Program-made: the position numbers and the translations under genes
Shown here: positions 46,635 through 54,743 of the stretch, in pieces
Layout of the letters: each line of letters begins with the position of its first letter
Position numbering within the stretch: position 1 is the first letter of the stretch
Notes under the pieces: model-generated
What the model saw: only the letters and a program-made list of their open reading frames with translations
Database searches by the model: none
Told to the model about the DNA's origin: nothing
Source: an uncultured Chloroflexia bacterium
GTDB lineage: Bacteria > Chloroflexota > Limnocylindria > QHBO01
Reading direction: 5' to 3'
Length of the DNA stretch: 64,000 bases
NCBI GenBank assembly: GCA_963825525.1
Contig: CAWGTN010000002.1
Coordinates: 320,001-384,000, forward strand

Positions 46635-47236
46635 TCGGGAACCCTAGTCGATTCGGCGGCCCGGGCGTCCGCCCATCCCCGGACGAAGGCCTCCTGGTCG
46701 GCCGTCTCGACGGCCTCGGGGTGGCGTACCTGGCGAACGCGGGCGATGGCGTCGTCCGGATCCCAGCCCGCGGCAACCAGGGCGCAGGCAACGATGGTTC
46801 CCGTCCGCCCTACGCCGCCCATGCACGCCACCGCCACGTTCGCGGATTCGCGCGCCTCGGCGATGCTGTGCAGGATGGCGTCCATCTCCTCCAGTGACGC
46901 GGGCGGATCGCCATCGGGCATCGGATGTCGATCCACGATGATCCCGATGGCGGCTGCGTGCGCCGCCACGTCAGGGTGGCCCCAGCGTCCGAGTTCCACA
47001 TCCTCGACCAGCAGAAGGAGGCGGCCGACCCCGGCGTCCGCCAGGCCCTGAAGGTCCGTGGCCAGGTCATTGCGGTAGACGCGGCCGGGATACCTGGTCG
47101 ATGCGCCGTGCTTGCCCGGTAGCACGGTCATGCCCAGGCGACCCGGGCGATGATCGTTGAGATCCGCCTCCGGCAACCAATCGATGGCCGGAGCCGGATC
47201 GTGCGCCGGTCCCGGAGCGCTAATTGAGCTGGCCAT
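46631..47236 (-). CDS. Dual-specificity/tyrosine phosphatase (CDKN3-like)
   Basis: CX5R motif ACMGGVGRTG; PMPD acid loop; AVET..Q. Confidence 0.85.
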   Translation of the reverse strand: MASSISAPGPAHDPAPAIDWLPEADLNDHRPGRLGMTVLPGKHGASTRYPGRVYRNDLATDLQGLADAGVGRLLLLVEDVELGRWGHPDVAAHAAAIGIIVDRHPMPDGDPPASLEEMDAILHSIAEARESANVAVACMGGVGRTGTIVACALVAAGWDPDDAIARVRQVRHPEAVETADQEAFVRGWADARAAESTRVPE

Positions 47237-47747
47237 TGTTGCGGACGCAGAAGTGCCCGGTGGGGTCCAGTGGCTCGCCACAGAACGGGCACGCCGGTCT
47301 ACCCGACGCAACCAATGCCTCCGCCCGGCGGGCAAAGGCGCGCGCGGTCGGCGCATCGATCCGAATTCGAAGCAGGTCGGGGCCATCCTCGGCCTCGTCC
47401 GGCAGCTCGGCGTACTCCCCGTCCTCGGTCGGGGTCTGCGCCTCGATCACCACCGCGGACGTCGTCGCGTCCCAGGCCAGCGCCATGGCACCGACGCGGA
47501 AGAGCTCGACCACCGGCTCCTCGAGCGGCAGCTCGTCACTCGGAGCCGCCTCGGCTGGCACATCGACCGCGTCGAGCAGGTCCCCGAGCCGCTTGGCAAG
47601 TGCCGCGACCTGGACCTTCTCGACCGCGACACTGATCATCGCGTCTCCCTTGCGTGCCTGGAGGAAGAATGCCCGGTCGCCGGGTTCGCCGATCGTGCCG
47701 GCAAGAAAGCGGTCGGGCTCGTCGAAGACGAAGAGGCGTCGTGTCAT
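47220..47747 (-). CDS. DUF3090 family protein
   Basis: PDRF.AGTIGEPG.RAFFLQ, EKVQV, FRVG and GRP.CPFCG.PLDP.GH.C.R.NG motifs. Confidence 0.88.
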   Translation of the reverse strand: MTRRLFVFDEPDRFLAGTIGEPGDRAFFLQARKGDAMISVAVEKVQVAALAKRLGDLLDAVDVPAEAAPSDELPLEEPVVELFRVGAMALAWDATTSAVVIEAQTPTEDGEYAELPDEAEDGPDLLRIRIDAPTARAFARRAEALVASGRPACPFCGEPLDPTGHFCVRNNGQLN

Positions 47748-47864
47748 CCGTTCCATCGTAGCGTCTGGCGACCCGGTAGAGTTTCGGTGCAGATGAGCAC
47801 CACGGTCGCCGAGGGAGCCACCTGACCGATGCGACAGCGGCTTCGACCCTTTCGGTCTCGCGCC

Positions 47865-48419
47865 ATGGCCCGTCGACCGGGCTCCGAGGGCGCTCTCGAG
47901 CTGTCGCCCCGGGCGCGACGCATCGGCGGCTGGGTCGCGGCGGCGCTCCTGATCGGAGCCTTCGCACTCGCGTTCCGTCTCCTGGGTGGCAACGGGGATG
48001 GGACCGTGACCACCGCTTCGCCCTCCGGCACGATCGCCGGGCTGGCGCCCATTCGATTCGGCACAGCGCTCGACCCCGCATCGGGAGAGGTCGCGGCGGA
48101 CGCAGAGACCGACCGATTCACATCGGGCGACGCGTTCGCCTATTCGGTCGAGCCAACCGCAACGGTGCCGGCGGCCGTCTACGTGGAGGTTCGAAGGACA
48201 TCCGGGGGTTCGATCGAAATCACGCAGTCACCGACCGACCCGCAACCTTTGCGCAACGCCCGTGTCATCGCGTTCACCGTTCCCGCCGGGGACCTCCTCG
48301 ACGCCTTTGGTCCGGGGACCTACACGATGCTCATCTACGCCGAGGCGGATGGCGACCCGCTCGCCGAAGGACGTTTCGAGCTCATCGAGGTGCCCTCCAG
48401 TCCGGCGACAAGCCCCTGA
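47865..48419 (+). CDS. Hypothetical membrane-anchored protein
   Basis: One N-terminal TM; beta-rich C-terminus ending G.Y.M...LAEG.F.L. Confidence 0.6.
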   Translation: MARRPGSEGALELSPRARRIGGWVAAALLIGAFALAFRLLGGNGDGTVTTASPSGTIAGLAPIRFGTALDPASGEVAADAETDRFTSGDAFAYSVEPTATVPAAVYVEVRRTSGGSIEITQSPTDPQPLRNARVIAFTVPAGDLLDAFGPGTYTMLIYAEADGDPLAEGRFELIEVPSSPATSP

Positions 48420-48420
48420 A

Positions 48421-48500
48421 CAAGAGGAAGGGATCGGAGACGTGCCCCATCTCCGATCCCTGCTGGCAAGCCGGCGTGCCCATCCGACTCGTCTCTCGGC
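48421..48500 (-). ncRNA. Candidate small RNA with two hairpins sharing a GGGCACG loop
   Basis: Upstream TTGACA (48530-48525); stems AGTCGG/CCGGCT (loop ATGGGCACG) and AGGGATCGGAGA/TCTCCGATCCCT (loop TGGGGCACG), then TCCTCTT. Confidence 0.4.
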
Positions 48501-48533
48501 ACAGTACGGTCACTCAACCGCACCTGTCAATAC

Positions 48534-49832
48534 TCAATTGACCGTGAGTGCCTCACTGGTGAGCTCGTACGCGCCACGATGGTCTCCGGCCTGTGCGCGC
48601 AGGTCGGCCCAGTCCCGCAGAACCTCCCGCAACCGGCCCGGAACCCTGCTCGAACGAGCGAGCGTCGCCGCATCACCAAACCGTGCTTCGGCCTCTTCGG
48701 CCCTGCCGCTCGCGCGCAGTGCCCGCGCCTGTGTGAGGGTGGCGCCCAGCTCCGCGAGCTGATTGCCGCTGCGTGTGGCGTAGTCGACGGCCGCGGCGGC
48801 CAGGGTCATGGCCTCATCGGCTTCGCCCGCGGCCAACGCGACCTGCGCCTCGGTGTCGGCGACGGCCGCCAGCCAGCGCTCGTCGCCGGTCGCTTCGATC
48901 TGCGCCCGCGCATCCCCGGCGAGCTCGCGAGCTCGCTGCACCTGCCCGGTCGCCAGGAACGCAAGCGCGAGGTCATTCTCGATGCGAGCCGACTCGAAGA
49001 TCGCGCCCGCGGCGCGATACAGGGCCATGCCCTGCGTTCCCGCCCGGATTGCCGCTTCGAAGTCCCCGACCTCGCGATAGCCCACGGCCAGGTTGAACAG
49101 GAAAGCCGCGCGACGCCGATCATCGAGGTCCGCGGCCAGACCGCGCGCCTCTTCCAGGTACGACAGCGCACGCGTCGAATTTCCGGTTCGAGACTCGACA
49201 GCGGCAAGCGAAGTCAGAAGCCGCATCTCGAAATCGGGCTCCACGCGCAGGCCGGATCGGACCTGCTCGAGGAGCGCGGACAGGATGCTGCGCGCATCAG
49301 GTTCGTTGTCGGACTCGTACAGTCCGTATGCGAGCCAGTAGCGCGCGAGTGCCGCATCGGCATCGCGGCCCGCCAGTCCGTAGATCCGTGCGGCTTCCGA
49401 GGCCGCCGCCACCGTCTCGTTCCCGCGGTCGAGGCGCGCAAGCGCTTCGGCCAGCCCCCGCAGCAGGTCTGCGCGCGTGGAATCGTCGGACGGAAGGTCG
49501 AGCAGCTCGGTGTAACCGTCGGCGGCCGCTTGCCAGCTGCCGGCAGCCAGCTGCATATCGACCTCGAGACGGGTCCACGTCGGATGCGACTCATCGATGA
49601 AATGGCCCGGCGGCAGGTTCAGCCGCTCGGAGATGTAGTTGAGCGCGACCATGGAGGGTCGAGCGATACCGGTTTCGAGGGCGCTGACATACGCCTTGGT
49701 GTAGCGCTCCCCGGCAAGCTGCTGCTGCGTGAGCCCGGTCCGATGGCGAGCTTCGCGGATGCGTTGCCCGATGCGGTGCGCGAGCTCACGGTCCTGGTCG
49801 GTGGCTCGGGCACTCGTCTTGGTCCGTGGCAT
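48534..49832 (-). CDS. XRE-family HTH and TPR-repeat transcriptional regulator (RRNPP-like)
   Basis: IGQRIREAR...GLTQQQLA...YVSALETG...PS HTH, followed by about 350 aa of TPR-like helical repeats; leaderless (TAGACT 6 nt before ATG). Confidence 0.88.
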   Translation of the reverse strand: MPRTKTSARATDQDRELAHRIGQRIREARHRTGLTQQQLAGERYTKAYVSALETGIARPSMVALNYISERLNLPPGHFIDESHPTWTRLEVDMQLAAGSWQAAADGYTELLDLPSDDSTRADLLRGLAEALARLDRGNETVAAASEAARIYGLAGRDADAALARYWLAYGLYESDNEPDARSILSALLEQVRSGLRVEPDFEMRLLTSLAAVESRTGNSTRALSYLEEARGLAADLDDRRRAAFLFNLAVGYREVGDFEAAIRAGTQGMALYRAAGAIFESARIENDLALAFLATGQVQRARELAGDARAQIEATGDERWLAAVADTEAQVALAAGEADEAMTLAAAAVDYATRSGNQLAELGATLTQARALRASGRAEEAEARFGDAATLARSSRVPGRLREVLRDWADLRAQAGDHRGAYELTSEALTVN

Positions 49833-49850
49833 TGCGCGAGTCTACACCCG

Positions 49851-49873
49851 CTGGCAAGCGCTACTTGACCGTG
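49851..49873. promoter_or_regulatory. Putative operator CTGKCAA-N7-TTGACCGTG (second copy at 48524-48546)
   Basis: Imperfect inverted repeat overlapping a TTGACC -35 element; same motif and spacing at both ends of the regulator gene. Confidence 0.45.
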
Positions 49874-50008
49874 GCATGCCCCGATCGTACTGGCGGGGAC
49901 GGGTGGGGCGGGACCGTTGGGTCATTGCCCGGTGGTTCCTTCGGCGCGACCGTGGCTGAGCGCCTTCGACGACGAAGGTCGGCCCGACCCACGTCAAGGA
50001 GAACATCG

Positions 50009-50134
50009 ATGCGAACCCGGCGAATCGCCCGCTCCATCCTGGTCGCTGGCACTGCGGCGGCGCTGAGCATTCTCAGCATCGTCTCGACTGTCATGGCCGT
50101 CACCGGCGGTGCGGACTTCCCCCTCCGCCGCTGA
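50009..50134 (+). CDS. Putative secreted signalling pro-peptide MRTRRIARSILVAGTAAALSILSIVSTVMAVTGGADFPLRR (41 aa)
   Basis: AAGGAGA RBS; Sec-type signal peptide ending V-M-A plus an 11-aa tail; divergent from the HTH-TPR gene. Confidence 0.78.
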   Translation: MRTRRIARSILVAGTAAALSILSIVSTVMAVTGGADFPLRR

Positions 50135-50182
50135 TCCTCGATCCATTCCGGGCCGCGGCGCGGCCCGGAGAGCGCTGAGCCC

Positions 50183-50767
50183 CTAGTGCCCGTGCTGGTA
50201 GTAGGGGTTTTCGCCTGCGTCGTGATCGGTCACGTCGACGATGGCCGTCACTGACGGGACGGCCGCCCGTACCGCGGTCTCGACACCCTGCTTGAGCGTG
50301 ACGTTGACCGCCGAGCAGCCCTGGCATCCGCCGCCGAAGCGCATGTATGCCGTGCCATCCTTGACGTCCACAAGCGTCACCTGCCCGCCATGGGATCCGA
50401 CGCCCGGGTTGATCTGTCGATCGATGACGTCCTGAACGGCGCGCGCCACCGGATCCTGCCAGCCCTCGTTCGGATTCTCAATGCGCAGGCCGCCACCGGT
50501 GACCGCCGGGTCGAGCTCGATCGATGCGCCCGCGAGATCGGTTGCGCTCGTCGGGTCGAGCACAACGGTCAGTCCATCGGATTCGACCGACAGGTCATTA
50601 TCGGCCCGTTCACGCGGATCCTCGAGCGCGATCTCGTACTGGAAACGACGTCCCTCTTTTGCCAGGACGCGTACCCGGAGAACTGCCTCGGGGAAGTTGT
50701 TGAAGGACCGAACGCCCTCGATCTTGGATCGAGCTTCGTCGGAGATGGTCAGGAGCGGATTGATCAT
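50183..50767 (-). CDS. nfuA: Fe/S biogenesis protein NfuA (degenerate A-type domain plus NifU-C)
   Basis: INPGVGSHGG, FGGGCQGC, TLKQGVE and DVTDH..GENPYY motifs. Confidence 0.92.
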   Translation of the reverse strand: MINPLLTISDEARSKIEGVRSFNNFPEAVLRVRVLAKEGRRFQYEIALEDPRERADNDLSVESDGLTVVLDPTSATDLAGASIELDPAVTGGGLRIENPNEGWQDPVARAVQDVIDRQINPGVGSHGGQVTLVDVKDGTAYMRFGGGCQGCSAVNVTLKQGVETAVRAAVPSVTAIVDVTDHDAGENPYYQHGH

Positions 50768-51463: not shown

Positions 51464-54070
51464 TCAGCCGAGCGGCGGCAGGTCCTGCGCGTCCGTGAGG
51501 ACGGCGGCGAAGCGGTCCCCGTCCTGCGCGACCCGGGCCGGCGCATCATGGATGGTCCACCGGTCCGGGCGCAGGTCCGGGTCGTCGAGCTCGTCCCAGG
51601 AGATCGGCATGCTCACCGGGGCGCCGGGCGCCGGTCGCGGGCTGTACGGCGCGACGAGTGTCTTGTTGATGGCGTTCTGCGTGAAGTCAAGGCGCGCCTT
51701 GCCCTTCCTCGCACGTTTCGCCCATTCCCAGCTCACGAGATCGGGGACGGTGGCGCCCACCGCTCGTGACAGGCCCTCGACCCAATCGCGCGTGTCGTCG
51801 AACCCGGGGCCCGGGTTGATGCGGATCCAGACCTGGATCCCCCGCTTCCCGGTGACCTTCGGGTAGCCGCGCACGCCGAGGTGATCGAGGGCGGTTCGAT
51901 ACAGTCGCCCGAGCTCGACGACCTCGTCCCACGTGGTGTCCGGCCCCGGATCGATGTCGATCAGCGCGTAGGACGGTCGATCCGGGGTGGCCATCGGCGA
52001 CGTCCAGGGGTGCATCTCGATGGCGCCCTCCTGCGCGAGCCACAGCAGCGTCGCAGGCTCATCCACGACCGGATAGTCCTTCGGACCTTCCTCCCGATGG
52101 TGGTACGTCCATCGATTCACCCACTCGGGCGCATGACCCGGCAGGTCCTTCTGCCAGAACCCCTTCTGCTCGACCCCGTTCGGAAAGCGCTGGACGGTCA
52201 GCCCACGATCGGCCAGGTACGGCACCAGGATCGGGCCGATGGCGAGGTGGTACCGAAGCAGGTCTCGCTTCGTGATCGGGTCACCGCCGTCTCGCCCGGG
52301 AAAGAGCGTCTTGTCGAGATTCGTGACGCGCAGCTCGCGGCCCGCGGCCGCCCAGACGCCTTCCCGTTCGATAGCGGCCAGTCCGTCTTGAGCTCCCTGC
52401 GGGGCCGACACCACAACCTCATCCTTGACCGCCGACTCGGCGGCCGCCACCGCGCGCCTGCTGGACACCGAACGCTCGCGGCGAACCGCAGTCGGTGCCT
52501 TCCCAACCTCGATGCCCTTGAACGCGGCCTGTCGGAGCAGGTCATCCGCCGTCCAATCCGCGAACTCCACCCGGATGACGAGCCGTGGCTCGACCCAGTG
52601 CGCGCCCTTCAAGCGCGGCACGACCTCCAGCGCCGATGCGTCCCGGGCGAGCTCGTCGAGCTTCGTGCGCAGCTCGCGGCGGGTCCGGGCATCGATGCCG
52701 CTGCCCACCTGGCCGGCATGCACCCAGTGGTCGCCGCTTCGCACGGCGACGATCAGGGACCCGAGATCACGGTGGCTGCCCTGGCCCTGGAGCCATCCCA
52801 CCACCACGACCTCCTGCTCCCGTCGAAGCTTGACCTTCAGCCAGCTGCGCGCCCGACGGCCGGGCTCGTAGCGCGACAGGCGGAGCTTGGCGACGATGCC
52901 CTCGAGCTCCTGGCTGCGTGCCGCCTCGGTGAATGCGTTTCCCTCACCATCGACGTGGCTGGCGTACCGCACCAGCGGATGCGGCCGCAGGCGTGAGCGG
53001 AGGAGTCGCTTTCGCTCGATGAGCGGCACATCGAGCAGGGAGCGCCCGTCGATGTGGAGCAGGTCGAACACCTGGTACACGACCGGCGCCGGCGCTCCCG
53101 GGCGCTTCGACCCCGGTGCGCGTCCGGTGCGGATGCCCGTCCGATCCTGGAGCAGGCTGAAGCTGGGCCGCCCGTTGTCGTCCAGCGCGACCACCTCCCC
53201 ATCGACGATCGCATCGGTGGCATCGATCCAGGCGGCGTCGCCCGCCAGGTCCGGGAAGTACCTGGCCGCGTCCTGCTGATTCCGGGTCCAGAGCCGGGCG
53301 ACGCCGTCCCGGATCACCGCCTCGACTCGGTAGCCATCCCACTTGATCTCGAACAGCCAATCCGGGTCGTCGAACGGGGCGTCGGCCAGGGTGGCGCGCA
53401 TCGGCGAGATGAAGCTCGGCATCGGCTCCGCGCGGGCGGCAGAGAGGTCGATCTCGCCCACCGGGCCGGGCATCGACCCCTCGAACCTGGGCTTCCCGCC
53501 GTCGCGGACCTCGTCATTGGTGCGCCCCGTCTTCACGCTGGCCGGATGATCCTCGGCATCCCAGCCGTCGACGGCGGTCCCGTCCCGCTTGTGAATCAGC
53601 AGCCACTGCTCGCGCTCGTCGCCCCCACCGCGCCGGCGGTTGTCGGTCCGGACGATCGTGAATCGGCCACGAACCTTCTCGCCATGCAGCTCGAACTTGA
53701 TCTCTCCCGCCCGCAGTCCGGCAGCCGGATCGGGAGTCTCGGCTTCCGGTTGGTAGGTGCCCCAATCCCATACGATCACGTCCCCGCCGCCATACTCGTC
53801 CTTCGGGATCACGCCCTCGAAGTCGAAGTACTCGATCGGATGATCCTCGGTGCGCATCGCCAGCCGGCGGGCCGCTGGATCGAGTGTGGGACCCTTCGGC
53901 ACCGCCCAGCTGACCAGCACGCCGCCGATCTCCAGTCGCACGTCGTAGTGCAGTGCGGTGGCGCGGTGACGCTGAATCGTGAACCGGCCGCTCCGATCGA
54001 CGAGCTCGCCCGGCGCGGGCTCGGGCGTGGCGGCGAAGTCACGCTTGCGTCGGTACTCCTCGAGCGGCAT
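51464..54070 (-). CDS. ligD: NHEJ DNA ligase D (phosphoesterase-ligase-polymerase)
   Basis: YRRKRDF..TPEP, HRATALHYD, SWAVPKGP; EIKWDGYR, EGIVAK, WLKVK; TNLDK, RFPNG, DIDP and APYS.R motifs. Confidence 0.95.
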   Translation of the reverse strand: MPLEEYRRKRDFAATPEPAPGELVDRSGRFTIQRHRATALHYDVRLEIGGVLVSWAVPKGPTLDPAARRLAMRTEDHPIEYFDFEGVIPKDEYGGGDVIVWDWGTYQPEAETPDPAAGLRAGEIKFELHGEKVRGRFTIVRTDNRRRGGGDEREQWLLIHKRDGTAVDGWDAEDHPASVKTGRTNDEVRDGGKPRFEGSMPGPVGEIDLSAARAEPMPSFISPMRATLADAPFDDPDWLFEIKWDGYRVEAVIRDGVARLWTRNQQDAARYFPDLAGDAAWIDATDAIVDGEVVALDDNGRPSFSLLQDRTGIRTGRAPGSKRPGAPAPVVYQVFDLLHIDGRSLLDVPLIERKRLLRSRLRPHPLVRYASHVDGEGNAFTEAARSQELEGIVAKLRLSRYEPGRRARSWLKVKLRREQEVVVVGWLQGQGSHRDLGSLIVAVRSGDHWVHAGQVGSGIDARTRRELRTKLDELARDASALEVVPRLKGAHWVEPRLVIRVEFADWTADDLLRQAAFKGIEVGKAPTAVRRERSVSSRRAVAAAESAVKDEVVVSAPQGAQDGLAAIEREGVWAAAGRELRVTNLDKTLFPGRDGGDPITKRDLLRYHLAIGPILVPYLADRGLTVQRFPNGVEQKGFWQKDLPGHAPEWVNRWTYHHREEGPKDYPVVDEPATLLWLAQEGAIEMHPWTSPMATPDRPSYALIDIDPGPDTTWDEVVELGRLYRTALDHLGVRGYPKVTGKRGIQVWIRINPGPGFDDTRDWVEGLSRAVGATVPDLVSWEWAKRARKGKARLDFTQNAINKTLVAPYSPRPAPGAPVSMPISWDELDDPDLRPDRWTIHDAPARVAQDGDRFAAVLTDAQDLPPLG

Positions 54071-54080
54071 GGCGCTTGGG

Positions 54081-54743
54081 TCAGGCCGGGAGATCGAGGC
54101 CGTCGAGCGTCTCGAGCACCTCGGCCGCCCCCGCATCGCGGAGCGCATCGGCGTCGACAGCGGCCCCCGCCAGGACGCCGACCGCGCGCATCCCGGCGGC
54201 CACTGCGGCTCGCATGTCCCAGGTCGAGTCCCCGATGTACCAGCAGCGTTCGGGCGCGACGCCGACCTCGCGTGCGGCGAGCAGCAGGAGATCGGGTGCC
54301 GGCTTGGCATGCTCCACGTGGCTGCCATCGATGACCCGAGGCTCCTGGTCCAGGCCCAGGGCGGCGATCGAGGTGCCGACCTGCTCCCTGCGCGAGGACG
54401 TGGCGATCGCCCAGGTCCAGCCGGCGTCATTCAGGGCGCGGAGCTGCTCACGAGCCCCCGGAAGAGGCCGAGGGGCGCGATTGCGCTCGTCGAAGAGCTC
54501 GCCGCTGCGCCGATCCACGGCCTCTGCCGTCCGGTCATCCATCTCGCGGCCGGCAGCCCTCGCGCCTTCGCGGGCGAGCCGTCTGCCATCGATGCCGATC
54601 ATCGGCTCGACCATCGACCGGGCGACCGGGATGTTGAACTCCTCGAACACGGCAACCCAGGCTTCGATGCGTGCCGGAACGGTGTCGACCAGCGTGCCGT
54701 CGAGGTCGAACAGGACGGCATCGGGGCGAGAAGGGTTCGGCAT
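54081..54743 (-). CDS. HAD family hydrolase
   Basis: FDLDGTLVD, ATSS, KPAPD and IGDS.WD motifs. Confidence 0.92.
   Translation of the reverse strand: MPNPSRPDAVLFDLDGTLVDTVPARIEAWVAVFEEFNIPVARSMVEPMIGIDGRRLAREGARAAGREMDDRTAEAVDRRSGELFDERNRAPRPLPGAREQLRALNDAGWTWAIATSSRREQVGTSIAALGLDQEPRVIDGSHVEHAKPAPDLLLLAAREVGVAPERCWYIGDSTWDMRAAVAAGMRAVGVLAGAAVDADALRDAGAAEVLETLDGLDLPA

Follow-up and report, generated by a model that had tools for sequence, protein, structure and literature searches.

Does an uncultured member of the Chloroflexota carry a peptide-receptor pair of the kind formed by the RRNPP systems of Firmicutes? The question is raised by a locus within a 64,000-nucleotide (nt) stretch of DNA (the window; G000:C2:320001-384000 of a 2.58-Mb assembly in 4 contigs), in which the gene of a 432-amino-acid (aa) regulator (48534..49832, minus strand) and a gene of 41 codons (50009..50134, plus strand) lie on divergent strands, with 176 bp between the regulator start codon and the ATG of the small gene. 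The regulator combines an XRE-type helix-turn-helix (HTH) at its N terminus with a C-terminal tetratricopeptide repeat (TPR) superhelix of about 340 residues (Pfam HTH_31, HTH_3, and TPR_12), and the small gene, equipped with a strong ribosome-binding site (RBS), encodes a putative pro-peptide. An earlier note on this DNA had described the same arrangement in a probable Chloroflexota genome and had taken it for an RRNPP-like pair. The sequence and the Pfam matches bear out the arrangement, and the phylum is right; the proposed pair is supported by its architecture, by the conserved pairing of the two genes, and by selection on the peptide tail, but no RRNPP-specific family model matches the regulator, and the resemblance of its fold to NprR and Rap is tied with that to unrelated TPR proteins. 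On balance, we lean toward a cassette of cognate peptide and receptor whose way of working resembles that of the Firmicutes RRNPP systems and whose layout is nearest to NprR-NprX; its likeness to these systems is one of layout. We favor this reading because of the genetics of the locus and not because of the fold, namely, the universal co-inheritance of the two genes, the strongest constraint on a 7-residue tail, the persistence of this tail after loss of the leader, and the existence of a second paralogue-peptide pair.

The small gene is under purifying selection and ends in a conserved tail

The pro-peptide gene starts with the ATG at 50009-50011, separated by a 7-nt spacer from the RBS AAGGAG (49996..50001, plus strand), ends with the stop codon at 50132-50134, and encodes MRTRRIARSILVAGTAAALSILSIVSTVMAVTGGADFPLRR. 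Its residues 1 to 30 (50009..50098, plus strand) resemble a signal peptide and consist of MRTRRIAR, SILVAGTAAALSILSIV, and STVMA, the last of which places a V-x-A motif at positions –3/–1 of a putative cleavage site. The predicted mature peptide, VTGGADFPLRR (50099..50131, plus strand), contains the conserved core T-G-G-(G/A)-D-F-P. A mechanical list of open reading frames (ORFs) extends this frame to 102 aa from a GTG start (49826..50134, plus strand), which the earlier note had called a mis-start; we likewise reject it as an over-extension, since the longest ATG-started frame of many orthologues is 39 to 41 aa and the spacing between RBS and ATG is conserved. The 41-aa product has no Pfam or NCBIfam match.

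A related-locus search recovered 80 orthologous loci with regulator identities of 64 to 85%; their record titles name Chloroflexota and Candidatus Limnocylindria, a class of soil and freshwater, to which the genome of the window thus belongs. Two of them (L006 and L079) lack enough upstream DNA, so that peptide genes are tallied over 78 loci, and L082-L100 are excluded from the tallies because their genomes largely duplicate those of L001-L080. Several contigs (L003, L013, L041, L042, L047, L064, and L067) are labelled Steroidobacteraceae, Acidobacteriota (Ca. Angelobacter), Binatia, or Methylomirabilota; their regulators nest within Limnocylindria clades with synteny unchanged, and mis-binning or mislabelling of these contigs is more probable than transfer.

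All 78 loci have, upstream of the regulator, a divergent mini-ORF with the same C-terminal core, which starts 165 to 190 nt from the regulator start and, in nearly all orthologues, has GGAG or GGGAG at a constant distance before the ATG, in long and short forms alike. The long form (37 to 43 aa), to which the gene of the window belongs, is found in 50 of the 78. Selection was assessed on 43 long-form genes (42 distinct) over their first 38 codons. Variable sites at the three codon positions number 23, 23, and 36, with entropies of 18.0, 12.0, and 33.0, and the ratio of nonsynonymous to synonymous polymorphism (pN/pS) is 0.44 in frame versus 1.27 and 1.90 in the two off-frames. A chance non-coding ORF is ruled out by this in-frame purifying selection, and the mini-ORF is a real gene. 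Its parts are constrained to different degrees, with pN/pS values of 0.50 for the n-region, 0.55 for the h-region, and 0.20, the lowest, for the tail.

The long forms share a common plan of a basic n-region, an apolar h-region of about 17 to 20 residues, V-x-A at –3/–1, and then T-G-G-G-D-F-P, followed beyond the proline by 0 to 5 residues that are varied in kind. Positions conserved at 90% or more in 51 aligned long forms are R5, R8, A17, L19, V28, A30, G33, G34, and P38, so that the signal-peptide-like part and the short tail described in the earlier note are conserved among the long forms. The basic n-region, the h-region, and the small residues at –3 and –1 agree with a Sec-type signal for signal peptidase I. 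A Tat signal is unlikely, as the twin arginine of the window is replaced by TKR, TSR, or NSR in orthologues.

The tail outlives the leader in a derived clade

In 28 of the 78 loci, a 12-codon ORF with the same RBS occupies the position of the long form and encodes MRSAHTGGGWPS and close variants, or M..TNGSG[FW]P. in its place. The short ORF of L065 relies on an inferred GTG start, and those of L059 and L072 are accompanied by longer in-frame ATGs that bring in no hydrophobic segment. The earlier note had staked its proposal on homologs having an adjacent micro-ORF with a signal peptide; the micro-ORF is present throughout, but the signal peptide is missing in these 28 loci. Short and long ORFs start equally far from the regulator, and the short form thus looks as if the signal part had been deleted in frame. 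The core TGGGWP is all that remains of the peptide, and since the RBS, the ATG, and this core survive the deletion of the hydrophobic part, the tail appears to be the functional element. The codons of the short-form core are nearly invariant, third positions included (pN/pS of 0.67), and it is chiefly the conservation of RBS and ATG that marks the short forms as coding.

To trace the history of the two forms, 79 regulators were placed on a tree by a quick maximum-likelihood search, with L044, L062, and L066 (truncated or interrupted frames) and L046 (cut by a contig end) left out. The outgroup family, f3, has the long form, and the short form is confined to one clade of 25 and the pair L064/L065. 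Parsimony requires two changes of peptide form, of which well-supported branches force one. On this tree, the leaderless form is visibly derived from the form with a putative Sec signal. A profile search of five short-form genomes gave no significant long-form copy elsewhere, the best match (E value of 0.026) covering the apolar part only.

Each regulator type keeps its own peptide type

In another family of the class (f3), all four regulators examined, at about 50% identity, have a divergent ORF of 40 to 41 aa, ending in …VLA|GGGGAPFPR, …ALA|GGGPPPFA, …ALA|DGGGSPFPK, and …ALA|GGGGTIYPR. The genome of the window itself encodes exactly one further close paralogue of the regulator (HTH_3 plus TPR; G000:C3:76136-77416, minus strand; 45% identical). 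No ORF resembling the peptide gene of the window is found upstream of it; tblastx of the flanks instead pointed to a 35-aa ORF, MLRIRSYLFSVALSALLTLLTAAAVLA|EGQPPIPR (C3:75939-76046, plus strand), which is convergent and lies about 90 bp past the paralogue stop. This ORF is kept in nine of nine paralog loci (own genome and L105-L112), with tails of the type [ED][GS]xPP[IF]P[RK], and the whole second cassette spans G000:C3:75939-77416 (locus L133:3440-4917). Both peptide types of this genome have a basic start, an apolar core, A-x-A, and a tail of 8 to 11 residues that ends in an aromatic or aliphatic residue, proline, and a basic residue; in three divergent peptide types, those of the orthologues, f3, and the paralogue, the conserved tail begins right after a motif of the A-x-A type (–3/–1).

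Each regulator type therefore keeps its own peptide type despite a changed orientation, divergent in one case and convergent in the other, and a paralogue with a distinct peptide is what one would expect if receptors and ligands form cognate pairs. The earlier note had proposed a search of homolog neighborhoods for similar small ORFs with co-varying tails: the ORFs are there (78/78 orthologous, 4/4 f3, and 9/9 paralog loci), but the tail is conserved across orthologues instead of varying with them. An EAL-domain gene is divergent from the second peptide gene, and a gene for a 705-aa protein with TPR and adenylate/guanylate-cyclase domains follows; these adjoining phosphodiesterase and TPR-cyclase genes suggest that the second channel may have its output in nucleotide second messengers.

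Regulator homologues extend further. At E values of 1e-40 or lower, they occur in 78 of 301 sampled Chloroflexota genomes, including 15 of 15 genomes of f1, a family whose loci include both peptide forms, and 8 of 15 of f3, and full-length HTH-plus-TPR homologues (profile E values of 1e-41 to 1e-65) are present in several other Chloroflexota families, with up to four per genome. In 20 loci of such other families (L113-L132), a crude regular expression that would miss leaderless forms returned no convincing signal-like partner ORF; tblastn re-found the regulator in 18 of them, and there are two weak upstream divergent candidates, in L125 and L130, the latter absent from the same-genus loci L128 and L129.

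The regulator has a peptide-binding type of TPR fold

The DNA-binding HTH domain of the regulator comprises residues 21 to 78 (49599..49772, minus strand) according to Pfam HTH_31 (21 to 75, E value of 6.8e-8), HTH_3 (25 to 76), and HTH_19 (22 to 78), and TPR_12 matches with an E value of 3.4e-12. Five HTH residues, Q36, A40, S50, E53, and G55, are invariant in the regulator alignment A1. An AlphaFold2 model built on 51 sequences (mean predicted local distance difference test score of 90.2) is all-helical with 23 helices; an HTH bundle reaches to residue 79 and is followed by 18 paired helices from 88 to 430. These helices, together with structural alignment, delimit the TPR domain (residues 88 to 430; 48543..49571, minus strand), which is predicted to be a ligand-binding superhelix. 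Its polar residues conserved at 90% or more are Y165, W166, R204, D237, D257, E259, N286, D317, T327, and R370. Among them, Y165/W166, R204, N286, T327, and R370 fall on alternate helices about 40 residues apart, and in the model the conserved polar residues may form a ladder that lines the concave groove of the superhelix.

A profile search of the PDB gave the HTH of PlcR (residues 18 to 78, E value of 7e-11) as the best RRNPP sequence match, with the HTH of SinR matched too; RapH (2.5e-10), RapJ (5.9e-8), and NprR (4.1e-7) are scattered among matches to AfsR, LGN, and kinesin light chain. In a Foldseek comparison, which the earlier note had recommended against PlcR, NprR, and Rgg, PlcR in complex with PapR7 and DNA (rank 35), RapF (rank 44), and pLS20 Rap with Phr* (rank 50) are among the PDB matches, but LGN/Pins and consensus TPRs come out on top (E value of ~1e-9). 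In VIA-align, where rows no more than 1 Z unit apart were treated as tied, the Z scores are 29.3 for APPBP2 with its RxxGP degron, 28.8 for LGN, 27.7 for phi3T Rap with pheromone, 27.4 for RapJ, 27.2 for apo NprR (5dbk_A; root mean square deviation [RMSD] of 4.4 over 337 aligned residues, model 86-432 on chain 74-417), 27.0 for phi105 Rap (RMSD of 3.5), and 25.2 for NprR-NprX. Rap proteins align with the TPR domain over 333 to 341 residues at Z scores of 27.3 to 27.7. As modeled, the fold is that of a peptide-binding TPR superhelix of NprR/Rap length and nothing more specific.

Palindromes flank the regulator gene

The divergent promoter region contains the palindrome O1, GGCAAGCGCTACTTGAC (GKCAA-N7-TTGMC; 49853..49869), a candidate operator whose right arm doubles as the –35-like TTGACC of the peptide gene. 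Alignment of 74 intergenic regions reveals three conserved blocks, AGTnTAC by the regulator ATG (conserved at 90% or more), TGGCAAGC-N5-TTGACC (about 90% or more), which is the palindrome O1, and GGGACCGNNGGGTCATTG. Read by eye, TTGACC, 17 nt, and TACTGG look like the promoter of the peptide gene, and the paralogous peptide gene has a similarly promoter-like TTGTTT-17-TACTAT; a consensus promoter scan found nothing at the cassette. On the minus strand, the first block reads as a –10-like TAGACT (49839..49844, also a by-eye reading) 6 nt ahead of the regulator ATG, which hints at a leaderless mRNA for the regulator. Farther along, between O1 and the RBS of the peptide gene, the conservation line marks the block GGGACCGTTGGGTCATTGCC (49910..49929, plus strand), which contains GACC-N4-GGTC and probably belongs to the 5′ untranslated region (UTR) of the peptide mRNA or forms a second binding site.

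A second palindrome, O2 (GTCAATACTCAATTGAC; 48526..48542), overlaps the regulator stop codon and is a candidate second operator or RNA hairpin. The pattern GKCAA-N7-TTGMC occurs twice in the window versus 0.08 times expected, a count reached in 0 of 100 shuffles, and just three times in the 2.58-Mb genome, two of which flank the regulator gene; the third (C4:64278-64294) follows closely on what looks like the 3′ portion of a tRNA gene, and the contig ends 80 bp away. Of 80 loci examined, 66 have a position weight matrix (PWM) match above 11 where the regulator gene ends, and none of the 4 f3 loci does; the pattern is found neither at the paralogous cassette nor at f3 loci. In 20 of 20 sampled sequences the O2 arms GTCAA/TTGAC are invariant, whereas changes occur in the 7-nt spacer and in the stop codon, which fits a protein-binding site, although invariant arms cannot separate RNA from DNA. 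The best genome-wide score of the block-2 PWM belongs to the site at 49910..49929 (30.5, the next being 18.4), and a genome scan with the O1 and block-2 PWMs found no further strong site, the next-best O1 match being O2. From these patterns, O1 and O2 could act as operators.

The 114-bp spacer between the regulator gene and its downstream neighbor (48420-48533) is more conserved than many coding columns, with invariant blocks such as GGGATCGGAG…GGGCAC and GAGTCGGATGGGCACGCCG and with indels that are not multiples of three; as RNA read from the strand of the regulator, it is predicted to form four hairpins (z of –4.5) with a pyrimidine run after the last. Across the 3′ intergenic sequences, covariation is negligible, and no stem other than the invariant palindrome is common to all. 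Rfam searched over 47700-50400 at E values up to 1 returned just sub-threshold, chance-level matches to SECIS_2 and SpF59. On the other side of the cassette, a GC-rich palindrome read from the sequence, CCGGGCCGCG-GC-GCGGCCCGG (50148..50168), lies between the convergent peptide and NfuA-like genes and is likely a bidirectional terminator stem without a T-run; a scan for terminators with a T-run found none at the cassette.

Neighboring genes

The 41-codon gene is convergent with an NfuA-like gene (Pfam NifU and Fe-S_biosyn). This arrangement holds in the group of loci at 73% identity or more; elsewhere, the mini-ORF is convergent with a large ORF, the orthologue of 51464-54430. Because no co-directional gene follows the mini-ORF in any clade of loci examined and its neighbor is convergent, the mini-ORF stands alone, and a leader peptide or attenuator is ruled out on the same ground. 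In the window, the large ORF (minus strand) encodes 988 aa with N-terminal motifs that we take to resemble the multidomain ligase LigD; in short-form loci, its orthologue is directly convergent with the 12-codon mini-ORF and the NfuA-like gene is missing.

At the other end, the regulator is convergent with the gene of a 196-aa protein (47829-48419, plus strand), which has an N-terminal membrane anchor and no family match in Pfam or NCBIfam, and a DUF3090/TIGR03847 gene (47220-47756, minus strand) comes next. Both genes are kept downstream of the regulator in most f1 loci with either peptide form, and neither was found in the fetched f3 or paralog loci.

Comparison with known peptide signaling systems

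In RRNPP(A) systems, secretion and processing yield a signal of 5 to 10 residues, which re-enters the cell through an oligopeptide permease. NprX is made as a pro-peptide of about 40 aa from a gene adjacent to its receptor gene; it begins with a signal sequence and has its short active part at the C terminus. The cassette described here shares with NprR-NprX a single polypeptide of about 430 aa, in which an XRE-type HTH at the N terminus is joined to a long TPR superhelix, and an adjacent gene for a pro-peptide of about 40 aa with a signal-like start and a short C-terminal tail. It differs in that it belongs to the Chloroflexota, that NprR is just one of many TPR matches (E value of 4e-7), that the tail stands at the extreme C terminus right after the signal-peptidase motif, so that no second protease would be needed, and that the tail is conserved across species while a derived clade has lost the leader.

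PlcR-PapR of the Bacillus cereus group likewise pairs an HTH-plus-TPR receptor with a signal-bearing pro-peptide whose C-terminal residues are the signal, and PlcR recognizes a palindromic box in target promoters, its own included. However, PlcR has about 285 aa and 5 TPRs and covers part of the model (TMq of 0.38), and papR follows plcR in the same orientation, whereas the peptide gene here is divergent from the regulator. The Rap-Phr systems of Bacillus, phages, and plasmids resemble the present one in a TPR domain that aligns over its full length and in the occurrence of several paralogous receptor-peptide cassettes per genome; Rap, however, carries an N-terminal three-helix bundle and not an HTH and acts on proteins, not on DNA, and Phr needs a second processing step.

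The 12-codon forms invite comparison with leaderless communication peptides (LCPs; RopB-SIP), which, according to excerpts of PMC10518010, are 8 to 10 aa long and highly hydrophobic and are encoded as mature peptides, without secretion or processing signals, by a tiny ORF beside an RRNPPA-type regulator; the same excerpts state that LCPs are secreted and re-imported in Firmicutes by unknown routes, with import independent of Opp. In the sister clade with short forms (28/78 loci; the gene of the window has the leader), the peptide is likewise encoded directly beside the regulator. Unlike LCPs, MRSAHTGGGWPS has 12 residues and is polar and Gly-rich, not a hydrophobic 8- to 10-mer, and the leaderless form here derives from a Sec-signal form, to judge from the same start position and RBS and from the long form of the outgroup. 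As for the range of such receptors, RRNPP/RRNPPA receptors are placed in Bacillota and in mobile elements (phages and plasmids) in excerpts of PMC10075063 and PMC12700828, and excerpts of PMC9765709 contain no mention of RRNPP in other phyla. Our literature search gave no relevant match joining RRNPP with Chloroflexi and none joining Limnocylindria with quorum sensing.

Proposed mechanism and alternative explanations

The scheme that we infer for export, cleavage site, uptake, binding, operator function, and cell-to-cell role is as follows. The Sec-type signal (residues 1 to 30) would carry the 41-aa pro-peptide across the single membrane, where signal peptidase I may cleave after V-M-A30 and free an 11-mer with the functional core TGG(G/A)DFP, the variable residues beyond the proline possibly being trimmed. 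The freed peptide would re-enter the cell, perhaps by way of one of the several Opp/Dpp-type binding proteins encoded in the genome, and would dock in the concave groove of the TPR superhelix. Docking could then alter the occupancy of GKCAA-N7-TTGMC at the divergent promoters by an HTH dimer or tetramer, closing an autoregulatory loop to which the second palindrome copy at the regulator 3′ end would also belong.

Several observations weigh against this reading, and some of them bear on its export and re-import part in particular. The micro-ORF is kept without any signal peptide in 28 of 78 loci, and as the five short-form genomes searched have no long form, Sec export is not essential to the persistence of the system; moreover, the 12-mer is polar and Gly-rich, not hydrophobic like the leaderless peptides of Firmicutes. 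The tail is near-identical over about 40 species-level genomes and lacks the pherotype diversification that is usual in RRNPP systems. In 5 of 50 long forms (L017, L019, L048, L050, and L069), the motif reads V-A-A-C or V-M-A-C with a lipobox-like cysteine at +1, and if signal peptidase II acts on these forms, a tail of 8 to 9 residues would be lipid-anchored. The leaderless clade, the uniform tail, and the Cys(+1) variants together weaken the case for export and re-import. On the side of the receptor, the fold match is unspecific, APPBP2 and LGN scoring equal to or above NprR and Rap, and RRNPP-specific Pfam and NCBIfam models gave no match to the regulator up to an E value of 10. A type I signal peptidase and at least six SBP_bac_5 (Opp/Dpp-type) proteins are encoded in the genome and speak for the scheme, but both families are generic housekeeping ones. 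Finally, O2 may instead act as RNA, as one hairpin in a structured 3′ UTR, since the region folds as a run of hairpins (z of –4.5), and the right arm of O1 may simply be a –35 element.

The alternative that survives best, which we nevertheless consider unlikely, is that the mini-gene is the target of the regulator and not the source of its ligand, its product being a small secreted or membrane-anchored peptide with a surface role of its own (envelope, adhesion, or antimicrobial) while the TPR domain binds some other protein or a metabolite. The h-region and its flanks, about 25 mostly apolar residues, could indeed form a single transmembrane helix, the lipobox-like cysteines would suit an anchored product, TPR domains of such shape bind many partners (LGN and APPBP2 top the list), and the HTH-TPR homologues of other families showed no convincing signal-like neighbor in the 20 loci searched by the crude regular expression. 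Such a product is difficult to reconcile with the 12-codon forms, which keep the tail without any membrane or export segment and are conserved across a 25-genome clade, and with selection that is strongest on the 7-residue tail. That both paralogous regulators retain their own peptide type through a change of orientation would be hard to explain for a mere regulon member.

A second alternative, which seems to us less probable again, accepts the peptide as the ligand and makes the circuit private to the cell: the peptide would act in the cytoplasm, as in the leaderless clade, or the loop of export, cleavage, and uptake would report the state of secretion, proteolysis, or uptake and not cell density. 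The leaderless 12-mers with no long copy elsewhere in the five genomes point this way, as do the tail shared across species with no private pherotypes and the confinement of the strong palindromes to the cassette, of which the regulon may mostly consist. Yet the ancestral and most widespread form (f3, the paralogue, and 50/78 loci) has a conserved export signal and cleavage motif, which would be pointless for a purely cytoplasmic ligand, and leaderless peptides of Firmicutes are secreted and re-imported by unknown routes (excerpts of PMC10518010).

We regard it as highly improbable that the mini-ORF encodes the precursor of a ribosomally synthesized and post-translationally modified peptide (RiPP) or that it serves as a regulatory ORF and senses through its own translation (of Gly-Gly-Gly-aromatic-Pro, or of Pro-Pro-x-Pro in the paralogue). 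In favor are the invariant Gly/Pro-rich core of a short ORF, the nearly invariant third positions of the short-form core codons (pN/pS of 0.67), and a weak NCBIfam match to the RiPP-associated TPR protein HaaT (E value of 1e-4, far under the cut-off). Against it, there is no syntenic modifying enzyme, neighbors differ by clade, no clade offers a co-directional downstream gene for attenuation, and the long forms are under clear protein-level selection with free third positions.

Implications

Returning to the cognate peptide-receptor cassette, we tentatively extend it to a broader proposal, which we regard as possible, if somewhat short of an even chance: the monoderm Limnocylindria may run class-wide, multi-cassette peptide signaling on cytoplasmic HTH-TPR receptors, with at least two orthogonal channels in this genome, of the TGGGDFP and EGQPPIP types. 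This would be the first RRNPP-style communication outside Bacillota, and one lineage would have turned a Sec-exported pro-peptide into a directly translated 12-mer by in-frame deletion of the leader. If true, that deletion would show, as preserved in nature, in what way leaderless peptide signals come about.

Made up of a regulator, a peptide of 7 to 11 residues, and a 17-bp palindrome, the system is compact enough for study outside its host, and controls of specificity are built in through the long-to-leaderless shift and the pair of paralogous channels. A conserved, selectable cassette of like design in a class that is abundant in soil and freshwater yet uncultured would widen the known range of peptide signaling and would offer a handle on the social behavior of organisms that are still ungrowable.

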